Shown here piece after piece: positions 2,606 through 19,284 of a DNA stretch of 64,000 bases; position 1 is the first letter of the stretch, and each line of letters opens with the position of its first letter. Below the pieces are notes generated by a model. That model was not told where the DNA came from. It made no database searches and saw only the letters and a list, made by a program, of their open reading frames with translations. A program made the position numbers and the translations under genes. Origin of the DNA: Chloroflexota bacterium (GTDB lineage Bacteria; Chloroflexota; Dehalococcoidia; GIF9; UBA5629); the NCBI GenBank assembly GCA_016875925.1, contig VGOO01000002.1:4431-68430 (forward strand). The letters are read 5' to 3'.

Positions 2606-2945
2606 CTTACATACCACCCGTCACCTGCTACGGTGAGTGACCAGCAGCGCTCAACTTAAACAAAAAGGGCATCAGCAACCGCCTTCAAACAGCGATTCCG
2701 GTGCCCGCTGATTCATCCCATCGGACCTCCAGCCAATACGCGACTATATTTAGGCTACTAAGGTGATCCCTTATACCTGATTTTGATTCTAGTCCCTATT
2801 TATGCGATTGTCAATACTTCTCGTAGCACCAAGGTTATTGAAATTCTTCTGGTTTGTCAGATGGCGTGGTATTGACAAAAAGCACCAAATCGTTGGAGGT
2901 GCAATGAAATGATTTCTTGTTGGATGAGCGGGATTGAACAAAACC

Positions 2946-2981
2946 GAGGAATGTGAAATTCAGCAGAATTGCACATTCCTC
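2946..2981. repeat. Inverted repeat / stem-loop in a 0.9-kb gene-free gap
   Basis: Read directly: gaggaatgtg-a-aattc agca gaatt-g-cacattcctc. Arms of 10+5 bp with one a/g mismatch and a 4-nt loop. Confidence 0.6.
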
Positions 2982-3120
2982 AGTCTTATTTAGCTGCTAT
3001 CCTGTGCTTCAGAGAGAAAAGCGCTTACATTCGGAGTGGGCTGCCTATCATTGATAGTGGCTGGGGATTTACACTCACTCTGGCCGAGGTTGTCTGGAAG
3101 TAACAATCACGATGAACTTG

Positions 3121-3199
3121 CGATGACGACTTGGGCCACCCTCACCTAGTCCTCTCCCGTCAAGGGAGAGGAAGACTAGAGCAGGATCGTCACGCCTCG
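3121..3199 (+). repeat. Intergenic repeat family B, copy 1 (GC hairpin cctctccc-gtcaa-gggagagg)
   Basis: cgatgacgacttgggccaccctcacctagtcctctcccgtcaagggagaggaag..gtcacgcctcg aligns by eye with 3311-3392. Confidence 0.7.
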
Positions 3200-3310
3200 A
3201 TTGCGTATCGACTGGAGTAGGATTCTTACGACGGGGTAGGGATGAGATTCTTCACTGCGTTCAAGAATGACAGGGCCAATGGGATTGCCACGTCCTTCAG
3301 GAGAACGACC

Positions 3311-3392
3311 CGCAATGACGTTTTGGGCCACCCTCACCTTAATCCCCTCCCGTCAAGGGAGAGAAAACTGGAGCAGGAGTGTCATGCCTCGG
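3311..3392 (+). repeat. Intergenic repeat family B, copy 2
   Basis: cgcaatgacgttttgggccaccctcaccttaatcccctcccgtcaagggagagaaaactggagcaggagtgtcatgcctcgg. Same module order as copy 1. It runs directly into A-repeat copy 1. Confidence 0.7.
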
Positions 3393-3448
3393 CAAATCGG
3401 GATGCCTGCAAGATAAATGGTGGGTTTTTCAAACCCACCCTACGGCAC
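3381..3448 (+). repeat. Hairpin repeat family A, copy 1 (ggtgggt-loop-acccacc-ctacgg)
   Basis: gtcatgcctcggcaaatcgggatgcctgcaagataaatggtgggtttttcaaacccaccctacggcac is about 88-90% identical to 4178-4243 by hand alignment. Confidence 0.75.
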
Positions 3449-3510
3449 TAGTGCTGTGCGCTTGACAAGCTGGATGTGTTTGATGTATTCTTTACCCATA
3501 GGGTGTAAGG

Positions 3511-3807
3511 GTGGAAATAGAGTTTTCCTCAAATCGCCTGGCTGATGCCAGTGTGAACTTCTCAGAGGCGAGTCGGCTCTTCGGTGTTCCACTTGGTCGA
3601 AAATATATTCAGCGGCTGGCAATACTGAGGGCTGTGGACAAGTTCACTGAGCTTTATGGGCATCGGGCGTTGAGGTTGCACCCCTTGAAAGGAAACCGTA
3701 CAGGGCAGTACTCGATAGCTCTTACCGGTAACTATAGGCTTATTATTGAAAAGGTCGACGAAGACAGAGTGCGCATTATGGATGTGGAGGATTATCATGG
3801 TGACTAA
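3511..3807 (+). CDS. higB: HigB-type toxin (plasmid-killer / RelE superfamily)
   Basis: 98 aa with a GTG start; an in-frame stop lies 3 codons upstream. LHPLKGNRTGQYSIALTGNYRLIIEKV..VRIMDVEDYH matches the HigB signature. Toxin-first gene order, with an 11-nt overlap with the antitoxin. Confidence 0.8.
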   Translation: MEIEFSSNRLADASVNFSEASRLFGVPLGRKYIQRLAILRAVDKFTELYGHRALRLHPLKGNRTGQYSIALTGNYRLIIEKVDEDRVRIMDVEDYHGD

Positions 3808-4084
3808 GACTAATGCTTATCCTGATATTGCCATCTCACCTGGCGAATACCTGGCGGAGGAAATCAGGGCACGAGGTATCTCTCAGAAGGAGCTAGCCAG
3901 GCGTATGGGACGGCCATTGAACCCGATAAATGAGATTATCAACGGGAAGAAAGCCATTACCGCTGAAACCGCCTTGCAACTCGAGGAAGTTATGCCGGAG
4001 ATACCGGCACGGTTCTGGTTGAACCTGGAGGCTGACTACCAGCTTACCAAGGTCTTGATAAACAAACGCGCCAAAGTTGCCTAA
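3797..4084 (+). CDS. higA: HigA-type antitoxin, XRE helix-turn-helix
   Basis: The start is taken at ATG 3797, because the ORF-track start 3746 lies inside higB. PGEYLAEEIRARGISQKELARRMGRPLNPINEIINGKKAITAETALQLEEV is the typical HigA HTH. Confidence 0.8.
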   Translation: MVTKTNAYPDIAISPGEYLAEEIRARGISQKELARRMGRPLNPINEIINGKKAITAETALQLEEVMPEIPARFWLNLEADYQLTKVLINKRAKVA

Positions 4085-4088
4085 GCGA

Positions 4089-4158
4089 GATGCAGGTTGC
4101 AGGTTTCGAGCTTTGTCCTCCATCTTGCATCTAGGTTCTTGCCTGTTGCCTCACGGCA
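4089..4158 (-). repeat. Degenerate heptanucleotide tandem array H1 (10 units; reverse complement of H2)
   Basis: The reverse complement reads tgccgtg aggcaac aggcaag aacctag atgcaag atggagg acaaagc tcgaaac ctgcaac ctgcatc, in one 7-nt phase. Confidence 0.75.
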
Positions 4159-4177
4159 ATGATGTGTGAGGGTGGTC

Positions 4178-4243
4178 GTCATGCCCCGGTAAATCGGGAT
4201 GCTTGCAAGATAGATGGTGGGTTTTCAAACCCACCCTACGGTG
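4178..4243 (+). repeat. Hairpin repeat family A, copy 2
   Basis: gtcatgccccggtaaatcgggatgcttgcaagatagatggtgggttttcaaacccaccctacgg. It ends 1 nt before the stop of the convergent gene 4244-4705. Confidence 0.75.
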
Positions 4244-4705
4244 CTATTGCTGTGTCGGTGGTGACCACTGGAGTAGCAATGCTTCGGAGGGGACTATCTG
4301 CGCTTGATATGCTCCCACGTGGCCGTATTTGTTACCGTATTGGAATTTGCCGGTTATGCTGATTTTGCCGTAGCGTTCGGTGGGGCCCATCATCTGCTGC
4401 CGGTAGAGCTGGTCAAAGACGTCACGGGGTATGCCTCCTTCTATCCACATCATCTTGCCCGCCGGCACCAGATGCCCTGGAGCGTGTCCGGAGTATTCCA
4501 GCCTTTCGCACAAAACTATGACCTCGAAGCCGTGGAAGTAGAATCCCTCTATTACGATTTGCTTGCCGTTGTACCTGGCTGGGTCAGCGAACAGTTGGTC
4601 GAAGGTGACTTGTGGCGTTTTGGTCGGCTGCATTCCGCTGCAGCTAATGGCCAGACATGAGAGGGATATTGCTAATATGGAGGCTAGTGCAACATACCTG
4701 TTCAT
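4244..4705 (-). CDS. Hypothetical lipoprotein
   Basis: 153-aa ORF with an N-terminal signal peptide and lipobox (ILAISLSCLAISCSG). I recognise no domain. Confidence 0.6.
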   Translation of the reverse strand: MNRYVALASILAISLSCLAISCSGMQPTKTPQVTFDQLFADPARYNGKQIVIEGFYFHGFEVIVLCERLEYSGHAPGHLVPAGKMMWIEGGIPRDVFDQLYRQQMMGPTERYGKISITGKFQYGNKYGHVGAYQAQIVPSEALLLQWSPPTQQ

Positions 4706-4779
4706 GTGTTCCTCTTCGCTAAAGTGTTTGGCAGCCTATATAACATTACGGCACCGCGCATATGTCCAAAGACATGTCT

Positions 4780-5193
4780 CTACGCCCGATTTTTTGGGGC
4801 GACCAGCAGCTTAAGACCATCGACTTCTAGCACTATCACCTCTATCCCTGCATCAAGATGCTTATCAGCACAGCTCGCCTTCCAGAGCACCCCTTGCACC
4901 TTGACGTAGCCCTCTGGTTTTAGCGGGCTTGTCACTGTTCCCTCGCAGCCGACCAGCGACTCAGCGTATTCCCTGCGCGGCAGGAAAAAAGTGGTACGGC
5001 CCAGTCGATACCTGACGTAAGCCAATGTGGCCAGGGCTACCATCAGAATCGCCAGCACCCAGAGCGGAGCACGGATGCCGAAGTAGGGCAGTACCCAGAT
5101 GACGATAATCACCAGCGCCGTTTCCTCGACGAGGGTGCCTACGACAGCCTGGATGGTGTACCACAGGGGTGGTCTATTACTCACACCGCGCAC
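4780..5193 (-). CDS. NfeD-family membrane protein
   Basis: Hydrophobic N-terminal helices followed by a C-terminal OB-like segment, GCEGTVTSPLKPEGYVKVQGVLWKASC..IEVIVLEVDGLKLLV, typical of NfeD. Confidence 0.7.
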   Translation of the reverse strand: MRGVSNRPPLWYTIQAVVGTLVEETALVIIVIWVLPYFGIRAPLWVLAILMVALATLAYVRYRLGRTTFFLPRREYAESLVGCEGTVTSPLKPEGYVKVQGVLWKASCADKHLDAGIEVIVLEVDGLKLLVAPKNRA

Positions 5194-5196
5194 CTA

Positions 5197-5481
5197 TCAT
5201 GTCAGGGCATCATTGTACCTGCCTTCGCCACAAAGGTAGGCACAATTGGGGCAAAATCTGGAATCGCGAGGTACTACCTCGCCGCAGTTGGGGCAGGTAA
5301 GTTCCAGCTTGGTGCCGCACTGCCCGCAAAACTTGTAGTTGCTGGGGTTCTCGGCCCCGCAGTCGGTACAGGCGGCAGCTTTTCTTTCAGCGGCAGCTAG
5401 CCTGTTCCCGCATTCCGTGCAGAAGCGGTTGGTCAAAGCATTTTCTGTGCCACATTGAGGGCAGAGGAAATTTTTATGCAT
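5197..5481 (-). CDS. Multi zinc-ribbon protein
   Basis: 94 aa made almost entirely of CxxC pairs: CPQCG..CTECG, CTDCG..CGQCG, CPNCG..CPNC. Its stop lies 4 nt upstream of the NfeD start. Confidence 0.7.
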   Translation of the reverse strand: MHKNFLCPQCGTENALTNRFCTECGNRLAAAERKAAACTDCGAENPSNYKFCGQCGTKLELTCPNCGEVVPRDSRFCPNCAYLCGEGRYNDALT

Positions 5482-5577
5482 TCAACAGTCTCAAGTGCCA
5501 GCCATGCAGTATCTCACGCACCGGCAGCCAGGCAAAGATTTTATCCTTTTACAGTGCATATCTCAAGAGGCGAGGTT

Positions 5578-5710
5578 CGTCGCTCGTCGCTGGTCGCTCG
5601 TCTAAAGGCAACAGCCGTGAGGCAATAGGCAAGAACCAAGATGCAAGATGAAAGTGGCAAGAAGCAAGATGGAGGATAAAGCTCGAAACTTGCAACTTGC
5701 AACTAACGAC
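5578..5710 (+). repeat. Degenerate heptanucleotide tandem array H2 (19 units)
   Basis: cgtcgct cgtcgct ggtcgct cgtctaa aggcaac agccgtg aggcaat aggcaag aaccaag atgcaag atgaaag tggcaag aagcaag atggagg ataaagc tcgaaac ttgcaac ttgcaac taacgac, all in one phase. Confidence 0.8.
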
Positions 5711-5791
5711 TTTCTGCTGACGACTACTGCAGACCTGAAAGTGCTATACTACACCCGATTTGTGCAGCACAATGCAGTAAGGGGGGAGACC

Positions 5792-6997
5792 ATGGAGAGC
5801 TACAAGGTCTATGGGTATAGGTGGGTTGTCCTGGCTGTGTACATGTATCTATGTGCCCTGACCCAGCTTTACTGGCTGAATTTTGCGGCCATTGATACTT
5901 ACCTGGAAGCGCGTCTGAATATAACTGCCATGAGCGTCGGCGTGCTCACGCTGGTCTTTCCACTGGTACAGGTCTTGCTCACCATTCCCGCCGGCATGGT
6001 CATCGATAGAAAGGGATTTAAATATGGCGTGGGCATTGGCGCGCTGTTTACCGGCATATTCGCTATGCTCCGCCTGGTGAACCCCGGCTCCTACACCATC
6101 CTGCTGGTATCCCAGATAGGCATTTCAATGGGGCAGCCTTTTGTGCTGAACGGCGTTACCAAGCTGGCCATGACCTGGTTTCCTCAGAAAGAGGAGGCCA
6201 CTGCAGTGGGACTGGGTTCGTTAGCTCTGTTCATAGGCATGATGGTGGCTTTGGGGGCAACGCCTATACTGGTAGAGTCATTCAGCTTTGGGACAATGCT
6301 TATGGTCTATGGCATCCTGGGCATTGTGGGCATATTGCTGTTCTATGCTCTGGTGAAATCCAAGCCTGAGACAGCTCCACGCGAGGTAGTAGAGGAAGAG
6401 GAGATTTCCAATTGGGCAGGAATCAAGACGATTCTTAAGATGAGGGACTTTGTCATCCTGGGCTTTGTGGCCTTGATAGGAATAGGCGTGTTCAATGGCC
6501 TGGCTACCTGGCTGGAGAAGATTTTGAATGAGCTGCACGGAATTTCCATGACCGATGCCGGCACCATAGCTGCTGTATTGATACTCAGCGGCATGCTTGG
6601 CTGCATTATCATTCCTATAGTTTCGGATAAGGTGATGAAGAGAAAACCCTTCCTGTTGTTGGCATCTTCTGTGGGAGCCTTGTCCATCGTCTTTCTGATG
6701 TTAGCCAAGGGTTTTGCGCTTAATATGGTCAATGGCGTTGTACTGGGCTTTTTCCTTATCTCTGCTCTGCCCATAATGTTGACCATGTCTGCCGAAATTA
6801 CGGGAGCCAGGTTTGCTGGAATCTCGGTGGGGTATCTGCAACTCCTGGGGAATGCGGCGGCAGTGGCTATTGTTCCGCTGATGGAAGTAATGCGCGGAGC
6901 TACGCAGCACTATGCCTGGCCTTTGGCCTTCCTGGCGATATTGCTGGGCGTATCTTTTGTACTGGCAACCCAGATAAAAGAAACCATGAGGCGCTAG
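5792..6997 (+). CDS. MFS transporter
   Basis: The start is taken at ATG 5792, preceded by aaggggggag. The ORF-track start 5648 translates the heptamer array. Hydrophobic helices run throughout. MFS motif A-like loop: PAGMVIDRKGFKYG. Confidence 0.85.
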   Translation: MESYKVYGYRWVVLAVYMYLCALTQLYWLNFAAIDTYLEARLNITAMSVGVLTLVFPLVQVLLTIPAGMVIDRKGFKYGVGIGALFTGIFAMLRLVNPGSYTILLVSQIGISMGQPFVLNGVTKLAMTWFPQKEEATAVGLGSLALFIGMMVALGATPILVESFSFGTMLMVYGILGIVGILLFYALVKSKPETAPREVVEEEEISNWAGIKTILKMRDFVILGFVALIGIGVFNGLATWLEKILNELHGISMTDAGTIAAVLILSGMLGCIIIPIVSDKVMKRKPFLLLASSVGALSIVFLMLAKGFALNMVNGVVLGFFLISALPIMLTMSAEITGARFAGISVGYLQLLGNAAAVAIVPLMEVMRGATQHYAWPLAFLAILLGVSFVLATQIKETMRR

Positions 6998-7004
6998 AGG
7001 CAGC

Positions 7005-7074
7005 AGGCGTGAGGCAATAAACTAGATGCAAGATGCAAGTGGCAAGGTGCGTCGCTCGGGGCTCGTCGCTCGTG
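7005..7074 (+). repeat. Degenerate heptanucleotide array H3 (10 units)
   Basis: aggcgtg aggcaat aaactag atgcaag atgcaag tggcaag gtgcgtc gctcggg gctcgtc gctcgtg. Confidence 0.75.
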
Positions 7075-7129
7075 ATGGAATATATGTCCAGGGTCACCTG
7101 GGCAGGCGACACCTAAGATAGGAAAGGCT

Positions 7130-7174
7130 GGTCCTTCACGGGAAGGACTGGTGGGTTTGTGAACCCACCCTACG
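7130..7174 (+). repeat. Hairpin repeat family A, copy 3 (subfamily with a ggtccttc..gaaggac 5' flank)
   Basis: ggtccttcacgggaaggactggtgggtttgtgaacccaccctacg. Confidence 0.7.
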
Positions 7175-7182
7175 CAAATCAC

Positions 7183-7231
7183 TTGAAACCTGCAACTTGT
7201 GACTTGCAACTAGCGAAGAGCGAGGAGCGCC
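7183..7231 (+). repeat. Degenerate heptanucleotide array H4 (7 units)
   Basis: ttgaaac ctgcaac ttgtgac ttgcaac tagcgaa gagcgag gagcgcc. It corresponds to the 3' part of H2. Confidence 0.7.
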
Positions 7232-7285
7232 ATGCCCCGTCCATCGTTGCTGAAGGCACACGTGAAGCATTATAATAGCAACCTT

Positions 7286-9445
7286 ATGAAGATACTGAAG
7301 CAAATCAAATACGAACCAGCCAGAGTTGTTGGTGGATACACAGACCGGATACTGAGGATAGACTTGGGCAAAAGCGACATCCATGTCCAGGAACTGTCGC
7401 CCGATTTCAAGCACAAATACATCGGCGGCCGGGGATATGCCCTCAAGCTAATCTGGGATGGTACCACACGGGAAACCCGCTATGATAGTCCTGACAATAT
7501 CCTGGTAATGGCCAGTGGCCCGCTGGGCAATGAGCCGGGGTTTCCCGGCACCGGTAAATTCATTGTAGGCACTATCTCACCTTTGACGGATACCTTTATC
7601 GATTCCAATGTCGGCGGGCACTTTGGCCCTCTTTTGAAACTTGCCGGCTTTGATGCACTGGCGGTTTCCGGCATATCCCAGAAAGACGTGGTCGTTCTGG
7701 TTGACGGCGATGCCCGTACCATCAGTATTGCTGCTGCATCAGTCTATGATGAAGACACAGATGAGGGGGCACTTTCCTTCGGTCAGCAGCTTTTACAGGA
7801 TGCAAATGGTGGAGAGCTTAGCGATGCCATGGCTGCTGTAACTGCCGGGATAGGTGCGCATAACTCCAGGTTTGGGATTGTCAACAGCCTGTTCTTTGAC
7901 CGGCGGCGGAAGCGCATTCGTTCCAAGCAAGCTGGTAGGGGTGGCACGGGGACTGTAATGCGGGCCAAGGGTCTCCGCGGCATTGTGGTGCGCTCCAGCT
8001 TACCCAGAGCAAACGGCAACAATGCCGTGGATAAGGAAGGTGTGCGCCGGGAAGGCTCCAAGCTAAAAGAGGTTGTCTCCAAATGTGATTCACAGCAACT
8101 CAACCTGGGTGCCTGGGGAACCACGGGCTTATCCGAGTTCATGGACAAATTGCACATTTTCCCGATAAACAACTATCAATACGGGCAGAGCCCGGAGTCA
8201 AAAAATCTGTTTGCGCAGGTCTTCCTGGAAAGGTATTTCAGCAAAAAGATACCTGATGGATGTTACTATGGGTGCAATCTCGCTTGCAGTAAAGGCGCCG
8301 AAAATGTGGAACTGACACGCGGCCCCAGGAAAGGAACAAAAGTCAACATCGACGGGCCTGAGTATGAAACCGTTGGTGCTGTCTCTTGTATGGGCATCTT
8401 CGACCCCCAGTTTGTGATGGAATACAACTGGTACTGCGATGAATATGGCCTGGACACCATTTCCACGGGCGTGACCATCGGCTTTTTTATGGAGTGCTTC
8501 CAGCGCGGATTTCTGACTGCTGATGACGTAGGGTACGAACTGACGTTTGGCAACATAGAGGCTGCGGACAGGTTGTTGCACGAAATAGCCAGGGGTAAGG
8601 GTTTCGGCAAAGTAGCGGGGCAAGGCGTGGCCAGAGGCAAGAAGTGGATGGCACAGAGATATGCCAGCCGAAATGGGGCTTCGGAAGAAGCTGCTCTGGC
8701 TGAAATAAGCAAATTCGGCATGGAAGTTAAGGGTCTGGAATTCTCCATGTACATCAGCAAAGAGTCGCTTGCTCAGCAGGGAGGATATGGTTTCGCCCTG
8801 AAAGGACCGCAGCACGACGAAGCATGGCTCATTTTCATTGACCAGGTTCACAAGGAGCTACCGACACTTGAGCACAAGGCTAATGCCTTGAAGTGGTTTC
8901 CCCTCATTCGGACATGGTTCAACGCCACCGGGCTATGCAAGCTACCCTGGATTGACGTACGAAATCCGGAGGCAGCCAAGACCGCTGAGCCGGTAAAAAA
9001 TCTTCCCACCCTGGCTTATTACGTGGGCTATTTCAATGCCACGACAGGGAGCAATAAGAAGCTGGAGGACCTTCTTGATGATTCGGAGAGGCTGTACGTC
9101 CTGCAGAAGCTGATAAACCTGCGCCAGGGAAAGGGAACACGGCCTCATGATCAGATTCCACTGCGGGCGATGGGCCCCGCCTATTTAAATGAGTACCAGT
9201 TTCGAGCTGAGTATTATGATAACTGGCTGAAGGAACAGCTTGGTGATGGCAAATTGCCTGGCAGTCCTGAGGAGAGGCACAAGCTTCTTCTGGAGAAACG
9301 GGCTGAGGCCTACCAGCAACTCTGCGATATCGTCTATGAAAAGAAGGGGTTCCTGTCCAATGCCATCCCAAAGCGGGAGACGGTAGAGAAATTCGGCCTA
9401 ATGGACGAACAGGCAGACCAGCTATTAAAGAAATTCGGCATGTGA
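7286..9445 (+). CDS. Aldehyde:ferredoxin oxidoreductase family (tungsten/molybdopterin, 4Fe-4S)
   Basis: N-terminus GYTDRILRIDLGK..YIGGRGYALKLIW. Cluster motif DGCYYGCNLAC (CxxCxxxC), plus GPEYETVGA and TGLCKL. The likely start is MKILKQ at 7286; the ORF-track start is 7232. Confidence 0.9.
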   Translation: MKILKQIKYEPARVVGGYTDRILRIDLGKSDIHVQELSPDFKHKYIGGRGYALKLIWDGTTRETRYDSPDNILVMASGPLGNEPGFPGTGKFIVGTISPLTDTFIDSNVGGHFGPLLKLAGFDALAVSGISQKDVVVLVDGDARTISIAAASVYDEDTDEGALSFGQQLLQDANGGELSDAMAAVTAGIGAHNSRFGIVNSLFFDRRRKRIRSKQAGRGGTGTVMRAKGLRGIVVRSSLPRANGNNAVDKEGVRREGSKLKEVVSKCDSQQLNLGAWGTTGLSEFMDKLHIFPINNYQYGQSPESKNLFAQVFLERYFSKKIPDGCYYGCNLACSKGAENVELTRGPRKGTKVNIDGPEYETVGAVSCMGIFDPQFVMEYNWYCDEYGLDTISTGVTIGFFMECFQRGFLTADDVGYELTFGNIEAADRLLHEIARGKGFGKVAGQGVARGKKWMAQRYASRNGASEEAALAEISKFGMEVKGLEFSMYISKESLAQQGGYGFALKGPQHDEAWLIFIDQVHKELPTLEHKANALKWFPLIRTWFNATGLCKLPWIDVRNPEAAKTAEPVKNLPTLAYYVGYFNATTGSNKKLEDLLDDSERLYVLQKLINLRQGKGTRPHDQIPLRAMGPAYLNEYQFRAEYYDNWLKEQLGDGKLPGSPEERHKLLLEKRAEAYQQLCDIVYEKKGFLSNAIPKRETVEKFGLMDEQADQLLKKFGM

Positions 9446-9469
9446 GCAGCAAAGGAGCTTTTTTAGGGG

Positions 9470-9715
9470 ATGGTAGTTTCAATTGAGTTTTTTGGCAGGC
9501 AACGCCTGGTTACGCAAACACACAGTATCAAGATGCCTATAACTGGCGAGACGAGGTTGAATGATGCCCTTGAGTATGTCAGGAATCTCTTTCCTGCTCT
9601 CCATCTGGATGACGGCGCAGTTCTGGTAACGGTCAACCATGAAATGGCGTCTCTGGACAGGGTTTTAAATGCCAACGAGACCGTCTCGTTTCTACCGTTT
9701 ATCGGTGGCGGCTAA
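9470..9715 (+). CDS. MoaD/ThiS-family ubiquitin-like sulfur carrier
   Basis: 81 aa ending ..VSFLPFIGGG with a C-terminal Gly-Gly. It lies 24 nt downstream of the AOR gene. Confidence 0.75.
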   Translation: MVVSIEFFGRQRLVTQTHSIKMPITGETRLNDALEYVRNLFPALHLDDGAVLVTVNHEMASLDRVLNANETVSFLPFIGGG

Positions 9716-9790
9716 CAAAGACTTTGCTTGCACTTAAGGCCAGTCAATGGTTCTATTCGGATTAGGTATAGTCGAATTGCCACAGAGAAT

Positions 9791-10165
9791 TCAGCCCTGA
9801 TACTTTGCCTTGAAAGCCACCGAGGTGATCACTTCAATAAGCAACCCGTAAATCATACCAAGTATTATAGTCCCCAGAAACATTCCCACCTTACTAAACT
9901 CTGGACTTTCTGGAGCCATGAGACCGCTGAATGCTAACGGGAGGCTAAAAATCAACCCCATGAAAGTCCCATGAATCGCCCAATGTCGGAGGGAAATACA
10001 GCTGATACCAATGGCAAAACCCATAAGGGTTCGGCTGACTATCACTTGTACTGCCACCGGCCACGCAAGCTCTCCCGGACTGCTGGAAGCCAGGCCGAAA
10101 CACACAAAACCAAACAGTACTCCAGAGATAGTAGCAACGATGATTCTTTTTGTTTTTTGCATCAT
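9791..10165 (-). CDS. Hypothetical integral membrane protein
   Basis: Four hydrophobic segments. The start is taken at ATG 10165, 6 nt after AGGAGG (10172-10177 on the minus strand). Confidence 0.6.
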   Translation of the reverse strand: MMQKTKRIIVATISGVLFGFVCFGLASSSPGELAWPVAVQVIVSRTLMGFAIGISCISLRHWAIHGTFMGLIFSLPLAFSGLMAPESPEFSKVGMFLGTIILGMIYGLLIEVITSVAFKAKYQG

Positions 10166-10194
10166 GATAAACCTCCTATTAATCAATATCAGGT

Positions 10195-10854
10195 TCAGCT
10201 CTCGCCATAAATAGAAGCAAACACGGCTTTCTCCAGCTCCACCACCTCGGCAGGAAGCTGGTTCACCTTTCCCAGCCTCAGTGCGGAGAGGTATATTTGT
10301 GCCGTGCTCTCCAGCAGCTCGGACATAGCCAGCGCTTCGTGCATATCCCGGCCCGTGCAGAGGGCGCCATGATTCGCCATTATCACACCGTTCCTGGGTC
10401 CCAGAGCCGAGACCACGTTCGCTGCCAGTTCCTTGCTGCCGGGGAGGGCGTAGAGGCTGATTTTTATCTCTCCGCCGAGGTAGGTGACCTGCTCATCGAT
10501 AAGGGGAGGTATCTCCATGCCAGCGACTGCTAGGGCGCTGCAGAAGACGGGGTGGCTGTGCATTATGGCATTTATCTTGGGGCGAGCCTGGTACACCGCA
10601 ATGTGCATCGGTGTCTCTATAGACGCACGTAGCTGTCCCTCGATGCGTTCTCCGGCAAAATCGACGACCACTATGTCATCCACATCCAACGAATCGTAGT
10701 AGCGTCCGCTGGGTGTGATGGCTAAGAGGTTCCGACCGTTTGGGTCTTTGAGCCGCAGGCTAACGTTGCCCGCAGTGCCTGTAACCAGCCCTTTTTGCTC
10801 CATGCGGCGAGCTGCTTCTATAACCTCTATCTTTTCAGAATCCCACATGCCCAT
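10195..10854 (-). CDS. Class II aldolase/adducin-family protein
   Basis: GTAGNVSLRL..AITPSG and IETPMHIAVYQARP..AIMHSHP (metal-binding His motifs). The likely start is MGMWDSE at 10854, because the ORF-track N-terminus translates heptamer array H5. Confidence 0.8.
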   Translation of the reverse strand: MGMWDSEKIEVIEAARRMEQKGLVTGTAGNVSLRLKDPNGRNLLAITPSGRYYDSLDVDDIVVVDFAGERIEGQLRASIETPMHIAVYQARPKINAIMHSHPVFCSALAVAGMEIPPLIDEQVTYLGGEIKISLYALPGSKELAANVVSALGPRNGVIMANHGALCTGRDMHEALAMSELLESTAQIYLSALRLGKVNQLPAEVVELEKAVFASIYGES

Positions 10855-10875
10855 ATTATCGCAAAGTTGACAGCA

Positions 10876-10945
10876 GATAGTCGATAGTCGGCAGTCGATA
10901 GTCACTTGTGGCTCGGGACTCGTTGCTCGTCTGTTGCCTGTTGCC
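10876..10945 (+). repeat. Degenerate heptanucleotide array H5 (10 units)
   Basis: gatagtc gatagtc ggcagtc gatagtc acttgtg gctcggg actcgtt gctcgtc tgttgcc tgttgcc. It sits in a divergent promoter region. Confidence 0.75.
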
Positions 10946-11065
10946 CCGCGCCTGAGTTGACAGGCACTCGTGCCCCGCTTAGAATGTCATCTTGATTGGC
11001 CTATCCACAAGAGTGAAGTGCAGCATTGTCGGAGAACCCCACTTTCAATCGATAGGAGGGAAATT

Positions 11066-12679
11066 ATGAAAAAGCTCGCCAGCATCTCGCTTGCCCTGGT
11101 TATCATTGTTGCATTTGCCTTGTCGTCTTGCGCCACTGCTGGGGGCGATTATGACATTGCCATAAATAACGGCCGTGTCATGGACCCGCTAACCGGCTTC
11201 GATGGAGTGGCCAATGTGGGCATCAAGGATGGGAAGATTGCGGCTGTCGTCCCTGCCAAACAAAAGCTCGGGGGGAAGAGGGTAATAAATGCCAGCGGCC
11301 TGGTGGTGGCGCCGGGATTCATCAATATCCACGGGCATGCCACGGGTGGTGGCATTGATGGCGGATTCCACGTCAGGGACGGCATCACTACCGAAATAAC
11401 AGGCAACTGCGGCCGCACCGGCGTCTTTTTCTACGATATGCCGGGGGCTATTCAGTTCACCCCCTATCCCGTAACTGATTTCTTCAGCGAGGTAGAAAAA
11501 CAGGGCCTCGTTATAAACATCGGCACGTATACCGGCAATATCACTCTCAGGGAGGCTATCGGGCTGAAGGATAAGGATGAGCCAACGCCTGAGCAGATTG
11601 CCAGGATGGTCGAGATGACGGGGCAGGAGATGGAAGCCGGTTCGCTGGGCATATCTTATGGGCCATTCTACGCGCCAGGGACCACTTATCAGGAGATGGT
11701 GGATATAGCCAAGGAAACCTTGAAGCACGGCGGGGGCGCTGCCATACATGTGCGCTACGCTATTCCGCCACCCAGGGATATCGAGGCCTGCGAGGAGGCC
11801 ATCAGCCTGTCCAAAGATTCTGGCATTCCCATTCTCATCTCCCACCGAGGCGGCCAGGTGGTGTTTCCTGAAAGCACAGATAAGCTAATTGACCTTATCA
11901 CTAGAGCCAGGGCAGAGGGCGTGCAGGTGTCCAGCGACCTTCAGCCGTACACCGCCAGCAATACTCCGCTGAAGGCGGCTGTCTTCGATATGCCCCTTGA
12001 ACCGTTCGCCAAGTTATTGGATGTCTCCATATCCGATGTGGGTGTGGGTGCAGCCGTGGTGATTGACGGCAATACTGTCATTAAGCCGGGCGATTCCTTC
12101 GCCAGCTTTGAGCAGTTCTATGACATAAGGGACAGGGTCAAGGCAGGCGAGATACCCGACCCCACCGTTATTATGCATATCTATAAGGCGGAGAAAATAG
12201 CCCTGTATTTCAAGTCGCCTTTTGTCATGGTGGAGAACGATGGACTTATCGTCAAAGACCCCAACACCGGCAGGTATACCGGCCATCCCAGGGGCGCCGG
12301 CGCCTTTGCCAAGTTTTTCAGGGAGTATGTGAGGGAGCAGGGCATCTGTGATTTGATGACCGGCATAGCCAAGTGCTCCACCATGGCGGCAGTCTGGCTG
12401 GGCATGGAGAATAAAGGCAGGGTGCAGGTAGGCTGCGATGCCGACCTGACGCTGTTCGACCCTGAGAAAATCACCGATAAAGCCACATACGTAGAGCCGG
12501 GCCAGCCTTCGGAAGGCATACCCTATGTCATCGTCAACGGCATCTTGGCTGTGGACAAAGGAAAGCTTACAGGGTCTAAATCGGGCAAGGTCATCAAGCG
12601 CAACTGGACGGTGCCTGGCGTGCTGCCTGAGTTGGGCAAAGCGGCAACCACCAATATCAACGTGTTACAGCAGCCCTAA
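11066..12679 (+). CDS. Amidohydrolase-family lipoprotein (N-acyl-D-amino-acid deacylase-like)
   Basis: ATG 11066 follows aggaggg. Signal peptide with lipobox FALSSC. Motifs GFINIHGH, DADLTLFDP and PYVIVNG are typical of D-aminoacylase-type amidohydrolases. Confidence 0.8.
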   Translation: MKKLASISLALVIIVAFALSSCATAGGDYDIAINNGRVMDPLTGFDGVANVGIKDGKIAAVVPAKQKLGGKRVINASGLVVAPGFINIHGHATGGGIDGGFHVRDGITTEITGNCGRTGVFFYDMPGAIQFTPYPVTDFFSEVEKQGLVINIGTYTGNITLREAIGLKDKDEPTPEQIARMVEMTGQEMEAGSLGISYGPFYAPGTTYQEMVDIAKETLKHGGGAAIHVRYAIPPPRDIEACEEAISLSKDSGIPILISHRGGQVVFPESTDKLIDLITRARAEGVQVSSDLQPYTASNTPLKAAVFDMPLEPFAKLLDVSISDVGVGAAVVIDGNTVIKPGDSFASFEQFYDIRDRVKAGEIPDPTVIMHIYKAEKIALYFKSPFVMVENDGLIVKDPNTGRYTGHPRGAGAFAKFFREYVREQGICDLMTGIAKCSTMAAVWLGMENKGRVQVGCDADLTLFDPEKITDKATYVEPGQPSEGIPYVIVNGILAVDKGKLTGSKSGKVIKRNWTVPGVLPELGKAATTNINVLQQP

Positions 12680-13489: not shown

Positions 13490-13535
13490 GGTCCTTCCGC
13501 CGAAGTACTGGCGGGTTTGAAAACCCGCCCTAAGT
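13490..13535 (+). repeat. Hairpin repeat family A, copy 4 (compensated stem)
   Basis: ggtccttccgccgaagtactggcgggtttgaaaacccgccctaagtg. The stem is ggcgggt/acccgcc instead of ggtgggt/acccacc. Confidence 0.7.
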
Positions 13536-16532: not shown

Positions 16533-17219
16533 CTAGGGAGCGACACCCCGCTTTGCCCCTCTGCGTGCCTTTTCCTCTGCTACCAGGCCATTCCAACCAT
16601 CGAGAGTTGTTGCCAAGTTATAGAACTTGTCAAAAGAGGTCAGTATATCGTTGATGGGTAAGTCGTCGAATGTACCATAGTCTGTGATATATTCGATATG
16701 TAGCTTGCCGTCGATGCTTCTAGGGTGGAGTATAGCATCATGCTGACCATCAAATTCTACCGGTATCCACCCGTTCTCCTGGCATGTCTGCAGGTCAAAG
16801 GCTGGCGTGGCTTTAGCCCATTTGTTGCCGGTGTAGAGCTCGGTGTACCCGTGGTAAGCGAATACGTTTGTCCTGAGCACTTCCACTGCTTTATCGGAGG
16901 CCAGATGGTTACGGATGTCGGCATGATGTAATCGCGCCGGTATGCCCGATGCCCGAGCCAGGGCTACCAGGAGCACCGCTTTCTGGATGCAGAATCCCTC
17001 TTTTCTATCCAGAGTTGTACTTGCGCGGTAATGTTCCAATGCGTCCAGATGCACGTACATATTGTATTTGATCTCGTCTCTAACAAAGTAGAAAAGGCTT
17101 ATGGCCTTGTCCACGTTGTTGTCTTTGCCTGCGGTAAGGGCTCTAGCCTTTTCAATTATCGATGGATGGTCGCAATCTATTGCCGGGGTAGGCATGAGAA
17201 ATCTCTCCATTTGTTTCAT
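16533..17219 (-). CDS. Transglutaminase-like cysteine protease fold protein
   Basis: EGFCIQKAVLLVALARASGIPARL..YHGYTELY, a Cys/His core. Confidence 0.75.
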   Translation of the reverse strand: MKQMERFLMPTPAIDCDHPSIIEKARALTAGKDNNVDKAISLFYFVRDEIKYNMYVHLDALEHYRASTTLDRKEGFCIQKAVLLVALARASGIPARLHHADIRNHLASDKAVEVLRTNVFAYHGYTELYTGNKWAKATPAFDLQTCQENGWIPVEFDGQHDAILHPRSIDGKLHIEYITDYGTFDDLPINDILTSFDKFYNLATTLDGWNGLVAEEKARRGAKRGVAP

Positions 17220-17224
17220 AGCTA

Positions 17225-18097
17225 CTACCTCCCTAGCACTTTTTTCACGGTAAGCCCGATTTCTGCCGGATTGGGTGCTATAGTAGCCCCAGCGGCGGCC
17301 AATGCAGCCATCTTATCCTGTGCTCTTCCTGAGCTTCCGCTGATGATGGCGCCGGCATGTCCCATCCTTCTTCCTGGTGGAGCGGTAGCACCAGCCACAA
17401 AAGCAACTACTGGCTTGTTCATTTTGGCTTTGATGAACTCGGCTGCCTGCTGCTCGGCGGTGCCTCCGATTTCGCCGATGAGCACCACTGCCCTGGTATC
17501 TTTATCTTGCTGGAACAGCTCCAGTATGTCAACAAAGGTGCTGCCGGGCAATGGGTCACCACCGATGCCCACGCAGGTGGACTGGCCTATATCAAGGCTG
17601 GTGAGCTGGGCTACTGCTTCATAGGTCAGAGTGCCGCTGCGGGAGACAACTCCCACGCTGCCCTTGAGATGTATTTCGCCAGCCATGATACCTACCTTGC
17701 ACTTGCCTGGTGAGATGAGGCCGGGGCAGTTTGGGCCGATGAGCCTGGTATTCTTTCCCTTAAGAAAGCTATGTACGGTTACCATGTCCAATACCGGGAT
17801 GCCTTCGGTGATGCAGACTATCAGCGGCAAGCCAGAGTCTGTTGCTTCCATGATGGCGTCTGCGGCGAAAGCAGGTGGAACGAAGACCATGCTGGCGTTG
17901 GCTCCGGTTTCCCTAGCAGCGGTTTCAACTGTGTTGAATACAGGAACATCGAATATCCTGGTGCCACCTTTTCCTGGGGTGACGCCGGCTACTACTTTGG
18001 TGCCGTACTCCATGCAACGCTGGGTATGAAAGCTGCCCTCGCCTCCGGTTATTCCCTGAACCAGTAATCTCGTCTTTTCGTCAATCAGGATGCTCAA
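17225..18097 (-). CDS. sucD: Succinyl-CoA synthetase alpha subunit
   Basis: [31 protein letters not shown]. Confidence 0.95.
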
Positions 18098-18117
18098 TTA
18101 TTTCCTCCTGGAGAGAT

Positions 18118-19284
18118 TTAGGAACCCTTGGCGGCTGCCACTGCTTTCTTGGCAGCATCGTAGAAGTCGCTAGCTTCAATTAATTTCAGCCTGGATTCGG
18201 CTAGGATGCGCTTACCCTCAGTAACGTTAGTACCGGCTAACCTGACCACCAGCGGCATATCGATGTCCATGTGTTTATGGGCTTCGACTATACCCTGGGC
18301 TATGATGTCCACGCGGGTCATGCCGCCGAAGATGTTAACCATAATTGCCTTCACATTGGGGTCGGTAGTAAATACCTTAAAAGCGCTGACGACGCGGTCA
18401 ACGTTGTTGACGGTGCCGATATCGAGGAAGTTGGCTGGACGGCCGCCGGCATGGGTAATCAGGTCCATCACTGCCATAGCCAGGCCAGCGCCATTGACAA
18501 GACACCCGATATTGCCGTCCATCTTGATGTAGTTTTTGACCCCTAGCTGGTTGGCTTGGACTTCGAGCGGGTCCTCCTGTTTCAGGTCGTGGAGTTGTTC
18601 AATGTCGGTATGGCGGAAGAGGGCATTGTCTTCGAAATTCACCTTGGCATCGAGGGCCAACAGATTGCCGTCAGCGGTGATGACTAACGGGTTGATTTCC
18701 ACCAGTGAACAGTCCTTGGCTTTGAAGAGCTTGTAGAGGTTGCTCATCAGGCTGCTGGCTGGGCGCATCTGCTCCTGGGACAGGTTCATGCCGTAAGCCA
18801 GCTTGCGACCCTGGAAGGGCTGGAATCCTGCTGCCGGGTCGATGAAAGCCTTCAGTATTCTCTCAGGCGTCTTTTGGGCTATCTCTTCGATATCCATGCC
18901 GCCGGCTTCGCTGGCCATCATCACGGGCATGCGGTTGGCGCCATCCACGATGATGCTGAGGTACAGCTCTCGTTTTATTTCCATTGCCTTTTCCACCAGC
19001 ACCTTGCTCACGGGCACGCCTTCGGCGGTGGTTTGATGAGTCACCAGCCTGGTGCCCAGAATTTGGCCTGCGGCCTTTTCGGCTTCCTCAGGGCTGTTGG
19101 CTGCTTTGATGCCGCCGGCTTTGCCCCGGCCGCCGGCATAGACCTGGGCCTTGATGGCCACCTTGCCACCCAGCTTAGAGGCGATGCTTTTGGCTTCGGC
19201 TGGCGAGTCGGCTACGGCGCCTTCAGGTATGGGGATGCCGTATTCGGCTAATAGCGCCTTAGCCTGGTATTCGTGGATTTTCAT
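18118..19284 (-). CDS. sucC: Succinyl-CoA synthetase beta subunit
   Basis: MKIHEYQAKALLAEYGIPIP..GGRGKAGGIK..NIFGGMTR. Confidence 0.95.
   Translation of the reverse strand: MKIHEYQAKALLAEYGIPIPEGAVADSPAEAKSIASKLGGKVAIKAQVYAGGRGKAGGIKAANSPEEAEKAAGQILGTRLVTHQTTAEGVPVSKVLVEKAMEIKRELYLSIIVDGANRMPVMMASEAGGMDIEEIAQKTPERILKAFIDPAAGFQPFQGRKLAYGMNLSQEQMRPASSLMSNLYKLFKAKDCSLVEINPLVITADGNLLALDAKVNFEDNALFRHTDIEQLHDLKQEDPLEVQANQLGVKNYIKMDGNIGCLVNGAGLAMAVMDLITHAGGRPANFLDIGTVNNVDRVVSAFKVFTTDPNVKAIMVNIFGGMTRVDIIAQGIVEAHKHMDIDMPLVVRLAGTNVTEGKRILAESRLKLIEASDFYDAAKKAVAAAKGS

Follow-up and report, generated by a model that had tools for sequence, protein, structure and literature searches.

Heptanucleotide tandem-repeat arrays in the intergenic spacers of a Dehalococcoidia gene cluster

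Why should a bacterial repeat unit measure seven nucleotides, and do the arrays built from such units act on the genes beside them? Bacterial heptanucleotide repeats have been on record since 1990, and both are general questions on which the locus described here bears. It lies in a 64,000-nt stretch (hereafter the window) of contig VGOO01000002.1, positions 4,431 to 68,430 of the forward strand, from the assembly GCA_016875925.1 of a Chloroflexota bacterium (Dehalococcoidia), in which five intergenic tracts, A to E, consist of in-phase 7-nt units (heptads). The tracts are a known repeat class in a new host, the Dehalococcoidia, and add a phylum-level host for heptanucleotide repeats. We hold, with modest confidence, that they are degenerate heptanucleotide tandem-repeat arrays of the type of the short tandemly repeated repetitive (STRR) sequences and long simple-sequence repeats, with a mainly mutational origin through slippage.

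Period and composition of the five tracts

A reading of the window made from its sequence alone had proposed five in-phase 7-nt tracts, at 4089-4158, 5578-5710, 7005-7074, 7183-7231 and 10876-10945. Lag-7 identity, that is, the match of each base with the base seven positions on, was computed over these intervals, with shuffles of each tract as controls. The tracts, with their spans as we delimit them, are as follows.

Tract A, 4089..4158: heptad array that follows immediately on the HigA stop codon, the flanking genes being convergent; lag-7 identity 0.60, z 6.2 (the lowest of the five).
Tract B, 5566..5729: some 23 heptads in phase, which occupy the whole spacer between the divergent promoters of the operon of a triple zinc-ribbon protein (DZR) and of a major facilitator superfamily (MFS) transporter; lag-7 identity 0.66, z 10.4 (the highest of the five).
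Tract C, 6998..7075: heptad array from 1 nt past the MFS stop codon, with GGCAAnA/TGCAAGA units grading into GCTCGTC; lag-7 identity 0.62.
Tract D, 7180..7235, plus strand: heptads ending about 12 nt upstream of the -35 box of a tungsten-type aldehyde:ferredoxin oxidoreductase (AOR) gene; lag-7 identity 0.67.
Tract E, 10869..10945: heptads occupying the whole spacer from the aldolase promoter to the divergent amidohydrolase promoter; lag-7 identity 0.68.

Shuffled versions of the tracts gave lag-7 identities of 0.24-0.26 against 0.60-0.68 for the real sequences (z 6.2-10.4), and lags other than 7 stayed at or below 0.36, except for the harmonic 14. When the whole window was scanned in sliding 42-nt windows with a period-7 cut-off of at least 0.62, the only peaks reaching it were 4091-4139, 5566-5714, 6998-7075, 7178-7243 and 10861-10930. 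The cut-off was reached at 102 positions; 200 dinucleotide-preserving shuffles averaged 0.01 such positions and never had more than 2, which rules out a chance origin of the signal. Tandem Repeats Finder independently called period-7 arrays in every one of the five tracts, and 7 of the 10 perfect 7+7 tandem duplications in the 64 kb fall inside the tracts, which make up some 400 nt in all. The roughly 20 other spacers of at least 80 nt in the window gave no period-7 signal, so that the tracts are confined to 4-11 kb. The five tracts of the sequence-only reading, the example heptads it quoted and the period-7 signal above shuffled background that it had asked to see in such a scan were all recovered; the positions it gave were right, and the true span is slightly wider for B (5566-5729) and C (6998-7075).

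The phase is held through changes of unit: C occupies column 4 in 10/10 units of tract C, and G column 5 in 10/10 units of tract E. Similarity falls monotonically over lags 7, 14 and 21, adjacent units being most alike, and the lag profile of the tracts gave no sign of a 21-nt (two helical turns) super-period. Head-to-tail 7-nt units beyond chance length, the hallmark of heptanucleotide tandem repeats, were found in the tracts. Their sequences are identical in three independent metagenome assemblies (JGI Ga0194110, Ga0194111 and Ga0194125), and we therefore take them to be real rather than assembly artefacts. These samples, which contain the contigs of the window, come from deep water of a freshwater lake, presumably Lake Tanganyika, to which the sample labels K_/M_DeepCast point. 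The three assemblies represent the window's own population; tract lengths do not vary among them, though the region is nearly identical throughout. The closest genomes are metagenome-assembled genomes of uncultured Dehalococcoidia/Chloroflexota.

Tract B runs from CGTCGCT x4 through GGCAAnA/TGCAAGA and CTTGCAA x2 to a degenerate GACGACT tail; tract D consists of the units ACTTGAA, ACCTGCA, ACTTGTG, ACTTGCA, ACTAGCG, AAGAGCG and AGGAGCG; and tract E passes from GATAGTC x4 through GCTCGnn to TGTTGCC x2. One unit family comprises GGCAAnA/TGCAAGA (including GGCAAGA), whose complement CTTGCnn matches the CTTGCAA/CTTGAAA units, and another comprises GACTATC/GACTAGC/GACGAGC, which read GATAGTC and GCTCGTC on the other strand. 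The families grade into one another, in phase, within a single array; each tract contains 7-23 contiguous in-phase units, the families occur on both strands (B vs A), and an AC or GC anchor returns every 7 nt.

The tracts are also related to one another and to those of four relatives from which the orthologous locus was recovered, namely a sister species from the same lake (contigs L085 and L018), one species represented by two sequencing runs (L087 and L088), and L089. Tract A repeats the core of tract B in reverse complement (80% over 65 nt, 5640-5704), with an inverted match of 95% over 37 nt to 5614-5650; in a gapped alignment, the sole internal difference is a single 21-nt gap, that is, three units by which A is shorter. 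A core of about 95 nt, GYCGTGAGGCAAYAGGCAAGAACCNAGATGCAAGATG ... GAGGAYAAAGCTCGAAACYTGCAACYTGCA, is common to tract B, to tracts C and D taken together, and to the spacer between MFS and AOR in the sister species, all of which can be aligned along it. In the window, C holds one part of this core and D the other; the two are parted by some 125 nt that are inserted relative to L085. The insertion contains a GCTCGTC module plus a hairpin at 7150-7173 resembling repetitive extragenic palindromic (REP) elements, and it includes the following stretch.

Non-periodic DNA, 7076..7179, minus strand: about 105 nt between C and D.

As judged from these alignments, the five tracts are paralogous copies of a small module set, rather than independent arrays. 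The imperfect palindrome at the centre of A and B is the only fold that is better than shuffles (z -3.3), none in C, D or E being significantly so. A search of the whole window against Rfam at the gathering threshold returned a tRNA-Ser only, and zero matches were obtained in the tracts at E values up to 5. A weak fluoride-riboswitch match at 3513-3547, at the start of higB (20.2 bits against a gathering threshold of 34, E 0.05), is probably due to chance.

Genes and predicted promoters around the tracts

The tracts lie among the following genes, with starts assigned from orthologues.

3511-4084: HigB/HigA.
4244-5481, minus strand: lipoprotein, NfeD and the triple zinc-ribbon protein (DZR).
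5197-5481, minus strand: DZR.
5792-6997, plus strand: MFS transporter, true start ATG 5792.
7286-9445, plus strand: AOR, true start ATG 7286.
9470-9715: ThiS/MoaD-like protein.
9791-10186, minus strand: small membrane protein (hyp131).
10195-10848, minus strand: class II aldolase.
11066-12679: amidohydrolase.

Pfam domains recognised in the flanking genes were HigB, HigA (helix-turn-helix), NfeD, double zinc ribbon, MFS, AOR, ThiS and aldolase. In public gene calls, the open reading frames (ORFs) of MFS, AOR and aldolase extend into the tracts, whereas orthologues put the true starts downstream; in practice, public annotation translates tract DNA as false N-termini of these three proteins. The false extensions (7232-7285, 5648-5791 and 10849-10905) give an AOR of 737 instead of 719 aa, an MFS protein of 449 (NCBI) or 435 (JGI) instead of 401 aa, and an aldolase of 236 instead of 217 aa; homologous MFS proteins have 401 aa. 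The AOR extension finds no in-frame upstream ATG in L085, and the annotated aldolase start, GTG 10905, is excluded because a 7-nt unit difference from L018 breaks the extension. A coding role was accordingly rejected, as the N-terminal extensions are unconserved and, in the aldolase, disrupted by this indel. With orthologue-based starts and stops, five out of five tracts lie outside coding regions, in agreement with the earlier claim that the arrays are non-coding.

Five promoters, all unmapped predictions from consensus scans plus conservation in relatives, adjoin the tracts.

5538..5566, minus strand: DZR-NfeD-lipoprotein operon promoter, TTGAGA-17-TAAAAT.
5742..5750, plus strand: extended -10 box of MFS, TGCTATACT.
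7247..7276, plus strand: AOR promoter, TTGCTG-18-TATAAT.
10855..10884, minus strand: aldolase promoter, TCGACT-18-GATAAT with TG.
10957..10985, plus strand: amidohydrolase promoter, TTGACA-17-TAGAAT (11/12 matches).

The DZR promoter region is the same in L085 at 45/45 nt, and the block from 5733 to the MFS ATG (promoter plus leader) is about 95% kept in L085, L087 and L089. The predicted AOR promoter is kept in L085 and L089, its TTTGCY...TATAAT motif occurring in many Dehalococcoidia AOR loci, and both hexamers of the amidohydrolase promoter are kept in L018; the predicted -35 box of the aldolase is made by a heptad junction of tract E. Tract B starts at the DZR -35 box and stops 13 nt short of the extended -10 box of MFS, and tract E ends 12 nt upstream of the predicted amidohydrolase promoter. 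As B, D and E lie upstream of conserved predicted promoters, they are probably untranscribed, and the arrays probably sit in untranscribed spacer DNA. The sequence-only reading had located four of the five tracts in 5' regions; this is correct for B, D and E, whereas A and C begin 1-5 nt past the HigA and MFS stop codons. Its proposal that gain or loss of units would shift promoter and leader spacing stands as to the 7-nt steps, but not as to the place, since the tracts lie outside leaders and -35/-10 gaps: being upstream of -35 boxes, they would on a change of unit number alter the length of the upstream spacer and the distance between divergent promoters, and not the spacing within core promoter or leader. 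Going by the predicted promoters, no tract has the placement of a phase-variation contingency repeat, in which changes of unit number switch expression from within a reading frame or from between -35 and -10.

The -10 boxes of AOR and aldolase lie very close to the start codons, 9 nt before the ATG for AOR (7247-7288) and 0-6 nt before it for the aldolase (10846-10884), and both mRNAs appear to be leaderless or nearly so. Most other Dehalococcoidia AOR orthologues have the same promoter motif, but with a leader of 50-100 nt containing a conserved GGCTAATC motif.

Change of the arrays among relatives and period 7 in other loci

At fourfold-degenerate sites of the MFS gene, identity to the window is 74% in L085, 65-67% in L087/L088 and 57% in L089, so that these lineages have diverged by 26-43%. 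Promoter flanks are near-identical in the relatives while tract interiors are rearranged or replaced. In the window, L087/L088 and L089, arrays of the same units are present in the DZR-MFS spacer; the corresponding spacer of L085 is taken up mostly by other hairpin repeats, plus an inverted remnant of the core. Arrays occupy the MFS-AOR spacer in the window, L085 and L089, with zero heptads in L088. Tract A is missing from L085, along with the HigBA genes. Between the window and L018, tract E is identical at 42/43 nt on its left side, its interior being replaced or interrupted by about 126 nt. Since each spacer is arrayless in some related lineage, none of the arrays is indispensable. More distant MFS orthologues (82-84% aa identity, other gene context) have zero arrays.

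Length changes come in whole units. Besides the 21 nt that separate A from B, there are two gaps of 7 nt each in the alignment of tract C with its L085 orthologue. The arrays of L087 and L088, two strains with 99.2% identity in MFS, are set apart by precisely one 7-nt unit and two substitutions, the ~66 nt of promoter and leader downstream of the array being identical. Gain and loss in 7-nt steps, and the polymorphism in unit number between strains that had been named beforehand as a check, were thus both found. The single-base differences between the L087 and L088 arrays are about as frequent as at fourfold-degenerate sites.

The units GACTATC/GACTAGC/GACGAGC, CTTGCAA/CTTGAAA and GGCAAGA, are met again in every lineage, as is the 12-mer GAAACCTGCAAC, in some cases at the other spacer; thus, tract D of the window, upstream of AOR, aligns with a module upstream of MFS in L087. 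Five related lineages that have the same units and promoters and differ in unit number, order and orientation, with a one-unit polymorphism between strains, form a natural series in which neutral slippage can be tested against a binding function.

For a wider view, period 7 was compared with other periods in 1.17 Mb, comprising the window and 80 AOR loci from species-representative genomes, with crude gene calling. The numbers of periodic segments were as follows.

Period 7: 33 non-coding, 5 coding.
Periods 4, 5, 10 and 11: 0 non-coding, 0 coding.
Period 8: 3 non-coding, 0 coding.
Period 13: 1 non-coding, 0 coding.
Period 14 (harmonic of 7): 12 non-coding, 3 coding.
Periods 6, 9 and 12: 0 non-coding; 11, 8 and 6 coding, respectively.

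The non-coding DNA of the sampled loci is dominated by period 7. At least one tract was present in 13/80 loci, belonging to Dehalococcoidia, several Desulfobacterota and one Planctomycetota, the last case being uncertain because the segment lies inside a crudely called ORF. The spacers concerned were tandem (+/+ 12, -/- 6), convergent (8) or divergent (6); all orientations being occupied, there is no general 5' bias in this sample. Heptads containing AATC were seen in 9 loci from three phyla. Heptad arrays are especially abundant in five genomes of Desulfobacterota or Dehalococcoidia (L058, L064, L078, L032 and L060); 22 kb of L060 contain 8 tracts, one of which, at 3796-3986, contains TTCACCC x12 beside GCATAGC units. 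In L028, a more distant member of the Chloroflexi from groundwater, heptads extend over 2950-3160 from the MFS stop codon to the AOR -10 box (GATAGTC passing into GAATCTT) and resume in the AOR leader as GACTCTn.

Origin and possible function of the arrays

The explanation we favour is that the general phenomenon is mutational, because the arrays are dispensable at each spacer, occur also after stop codons, and have counterparts with unrelated units elsewhere in all gene contexts. The dominance of period 7 in non-coding DNA of other genomes agrees with the published pattern for heptanucleotides. The arrays change by whole 7-nt units gained or lost, and modules are copied between nearby spacers in either orientation and interrupted by small repeats, including the REP-like hairpins. 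The units would be generated in a 7-nt register, by slippage during replication or by unequal exchange, while ectopic recombination or gene conversion would spread modules among the spacers around MFS and the neighbouring genes. The direct effect of the arrays would be a variable length and sequence upstream of the -35 boxes of the DZR operon, MFS, AOR, aldolase and amidohydrolase. Promoter-proximal units that overlap selected promoter sequence may reseed the array, and this could account in part for the persistence of the units.

How do the tracts compare with known heptanucleotide systems? The STRR heptamers of heterocystous cyanobacteria, given in the sequence-only reading as the only analogue, are a fair one: they too are tandem 7-nt intergenic units, with several families per genome, both orientations and frequent degeneracy. 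Mazel is said to have described in 1990 the units CCCCART, TTKGTCA and CAACAGT, and Elhai in 2008 is reported to have found STRR arrays interrupted by other small repeats. The present tracts differ in their host, in the absence of any STRR unit and in their short arrays (2-4 perfect units) with unit switching in phase; as both units and host are at odds with those of STRR, they fall outside STRR proper. STRR is not the only analogue, however, as other systems exist in Geobacter, Beggiatoaceae, Xanthomonas and Nostoc, in addition to a class known from a general survey. In Nostoc, heptamer repeats influence the expression of recF and recO (bioRxiv 10.1101/2022.06.06.494920).

As summarised in later papers, that survey found heptanucleotides to be the most abundant class of long simple-sequence repeats in most repeat-rich prokaryotic genomes examined, and slippage was proposed (Mrazek, Guo and Shah 2007 via PMC4679880, PMC4692102). 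Our tracts resemble this class in the dominance of period 7, the intergenic position, the sporadic distribution among genomes and the variable length between relatives. According to the same summaries, the survey scored near-perfect repeats, whereas the tracts are degenerate and composite, with units common to a clade; Dehalococcoidia are not among its repeat-rich genomes as far as the summarising papers say (PMC4679880, PMC4692102). In Geobacter metallireducens, multicopy elements contain four tandem GGACCGG at 49 sites or five tandem MTYCTGA at 15/16 sites, which their authors read as possible global regulatory sites (PMC2700814). They are alike in their short arrays of 4-5 heptads, many sites and both orientations, and Desulfobacterota are array-rich in our sample as well; their units are different, and they form genome-wide families, in contrast to a composite found only around one gene cluster. 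The TAACTGA repeats of marine Beggiatoaceae lie a few nt upstream of start codons (PMC4679880), and the GGGAATC/GGGGAYT repeats of Xanthomonas and Nostoc include GGGAATC, which is able to form G-quadruplexes (PMC4692102). These are likewise direct heptamers near gene starts, common to related species and variable in length at orthologous spacers; unlike the tracts, they have one dominant unit per genome, and start-codon adjacency and G-quadruplexes do not apply here. Upstream of ctxAB in Vibrio cholerae (TTTTGAT) and at hmw1A/hmw2A in Haemophilus influenzae (7-bp repeats), unit number reportedly varies between strains. Both share with our tracts a promoter-region position and strain-variable unit number, and differ in being single pathogen loci with a demonstrated binding protein or expression effect, the tracts here being known from sequence.

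Yet another architecture is that of plasmid pSM19035, on which the ribbon-helix-helix protein omega/ParB binds contiguous 7-bp units, direct or inverted, of which at least 4 are needed (PMC9499535). The likeness of this operator/parS to the tracts, with gapless 7-bp units, direct plus inverted, in at least 4 copies, is an analogy of architecture only. Its heptad is WATCACW, which is absent here, and no ribbon-helix-helix gene was found nearby. None of STRR1-3, TAACTGA, GGGAATC, GGACCGG, MTYCTGA, WATCACW and TTTTGAT was found in the window or the sampled loci, nor any tandem dimer of STRR units. The full-text literature search returned no description of heptanucleotide repeats in Dehalococcoidia, in line with the earlier remark that none was known for this kind of organism.

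Several observations weigh against a mutational origin of the whole. The recurrence of units at fourfold identities of 57-74% is one, since purely neutral arrays should have drifted. In L028, the exact 21-mer GATAGTCGATAGTCGGCAGTC of tract E lies between MFS and AOR, and the exact match extends to 27 nt when the query is taken from the sister-species contig L018. Conservation is uneven among unit positions in three arrays (permutation p 0.007-0.03) and non-significant in most, which is only suggestive because the arrays are not independent of one another. The five predicted promoters have B, D or E immediately upstream of their -35 boxes. Finally, slippage leaves the reason for the 7-nt register unexplained. 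The conserved units are a hint of constraint on the heptads.

These observations would fit cooperative protein-binding arrays in which each dimer occupies a single contiguous 7-bp unit, whichever way that unit points, and which form regulatory platforms at five promoters, with occupancy tuned by unit number. We consider this possible, though on the whole doubtful, and it draws on the pSM19035 analogy for its experimental precedent of contiguous mixed-orientation 7-bp units in at least 4 copies (PMC9499535). It would explain why units are conserved across the diverged lineages beyond neutral expectation and keep their AC or GC anchor every 7 nt at unevenly conserved positions, why the arrays end no more than about 15 nt from the -35 boxes, why the composite element was found only at the window's gene cluster in the sequence sampled, and why L028 and L032, both more distant Chloroflexi, have the same units (GGCAAnA in L032) upstream of the same conserved AOR promoter. 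Against it, each site is arrayless in some close lineage that keeps the promoter, A and C follow stop codons, A even lying between convergent genes, and the substitutions in the L087/L088 arrays occur at a near-neutral rate. Moreover, the neighbourhoods of the window, L028 and L032 have no DNA-binding gene in common; Pfam searches of the flanking genes, in which not all small ORFs were scanned, gave no ribbon-helix-helix domain; and the many different units in every spacer type of other genomes are more than a single regulator would suffice for. A specific form of this idea, which we rate as rather unlikely, is a chromosomal binding code tunable by slippage, read by a putative clade protein that would polymerise on 7-bp units with an anchor dinucleotide every 7 bp. 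If true, gain and loss of units would act as a heritable expression dial at five promoters, and the constancy of units despite changing number, order and orientation would be explained.

The DZR protein (5197-5481) was set aside as a binding factor, since it is encoded in an operon with the membrane protein NfeD and a lipoprotein, and the proposal would be pure speculation. Nor do the units behave as tandem -35-like hexamers pointing to the downstream gene: 5/7 half-tracts fit, which is not significant, and the pattern fails in other genomes.

An unlikely explanation is that the likeness among tracts results from recent transposition of a non-autonomous element with a heptad body, similar to miniature inverted-repeat transposable elements (MITEs). 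Such an element would fit the two orientations seen (A vs B, and the inverted partial copy in L085), the palindromic centre of A and B, the position of tract A at the end of an inserted HigBA cassette, and the occurrence of the 21-mer at a non-orthologous site in L028. Copies at orthologous spacers in 4-5 lineages indicate, however, that the arrays are old and not recent insertions, and an exact-pattern scan of the metagenome collection for the composite core returned only the orthologous locus of the sister species, plus one chance hit. Terminal inverted repeats or target-site duplications were not noticed on reading the alignments, no systematic search for them being made, and no transposase occurs among about 20 annotated ORFs (~3.5-24.5 kb of the window). 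Viral contigs were scanned twice without a match, which speaks against a mobile element and led us to discard a phage origin too. An integron attC site at the 3' end of HigBA was likewise rejected, as reading of tract A revealed no core-site pattern and the other tracts are not at cassette ends; and the inverted repeats A and B were rejected as borders of an invertible segment, as there is no invertase gene and the sister species has the same gene order.

HutP is a ring-shaped RNA-binding protein and provides a model for a platform of triplets with 4-nt spacers. That the arrays act as RNA in this manner, or as structured untranslated regions, is very improbable: tract E would read UAG-N4-UAG-N4-CAG-N4-UAG, a trinucleotide anchor recurs every 7 nt and A and C are probably in 3' untranslated regions, but B, D and E lie in probably untranscribed DNA upstream of conserved predicted promoters, C, D and E lack a significant fold, the tracts lack an Rfam match, and their orientation to the flanking genes is inconsistent. 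The tracts are thus best accommodated, in our view, as slippage-born repeat arrays.

Neighbouring small repeats and other features of the region

The tracts share the first part of the window with repeats of another kind, listed here.

GTAG-tagged REP-like hairpins, minus strand: 3419-3443, 4216-4239, 7150-7173 and 13510-13533; pattern GTAGGGTGGGTTTnnnAACCCACC, the last being a TTAG variant.

The minus-strand sequence of the hairpin at 7150-7173 is GTAGGGTGGGTTCACAAACCCACC. The pattern matches 9 times, where 0.2 matches would be expected; the 9 come from four sites, most of them scored on each strand. None of the four hairpins lies beyond the first 14 kb, two carry a terminator-like flag, and one (4216-4239) lies downstream of tract A. 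In the GTAG-tagged REP class, a GTAG tetranucleotide stands beside a palindrome of 20-40 bp in multiple copies (PMC3733652); by their sequence, the hairpins, and not the heptads, fit this class.

One of these hairpins is contained in each copy of a direct repeat of about 85 nt (3377-3460 and 4174-4260, 87-89% identical) that encloses 3460-4173, that is, HigBA and tract A. The sister-species contig L085 has one copy of this repeat and lacks HigBA, and HigBA plus tract A therefore looks like a recent cassette insertion. The only other contig with this HigA, the short L086, has the same locus and is broken exactly at the flanking repeat. Other small repeats are packed into some 900 nt without a called gene (2606-3510), among them the pair 3120-3173 / 3312-3366 with the hairpin GCRATGACG...GGGCCACCCTCACCT...CCCGTCAAGGGAGAG. 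Hairpin repeats of the CGCAATGAC type, like those at 2606-3510, occupy the DZR-MFS spacer of L085 and L087.

Upstream of these, at 1-2605 on the minus strand and cut by the start of the window, is encoded a protein of 1125 aa, in which double zinc ribbon, guanylate-cyclase, AAA_16 and TPR are the domains present. The C-terminal part is similar to that of SARP-LAL regulators, and no DNA-binding domain was recognised in it here. The SARP domain binds heptameric direct repeats.

Gene content downstream of AOR also varies. The hyp131 gene (region 9723-10188) is missing in L018, where 47 nt part ThiS from the aldolase. In the more distant relatives L091 and L093 the aldolase lies directly 3' of MFS, and for this reason AOR-ThiS may be an insertion in the window's clade. 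Finally, between the window and the strain contig L001, 196 of the 205 differences fall in 17001-18824 (the sucC/sucD region), the other 17 kb being almost identical, a pattern that looks like recombination import.

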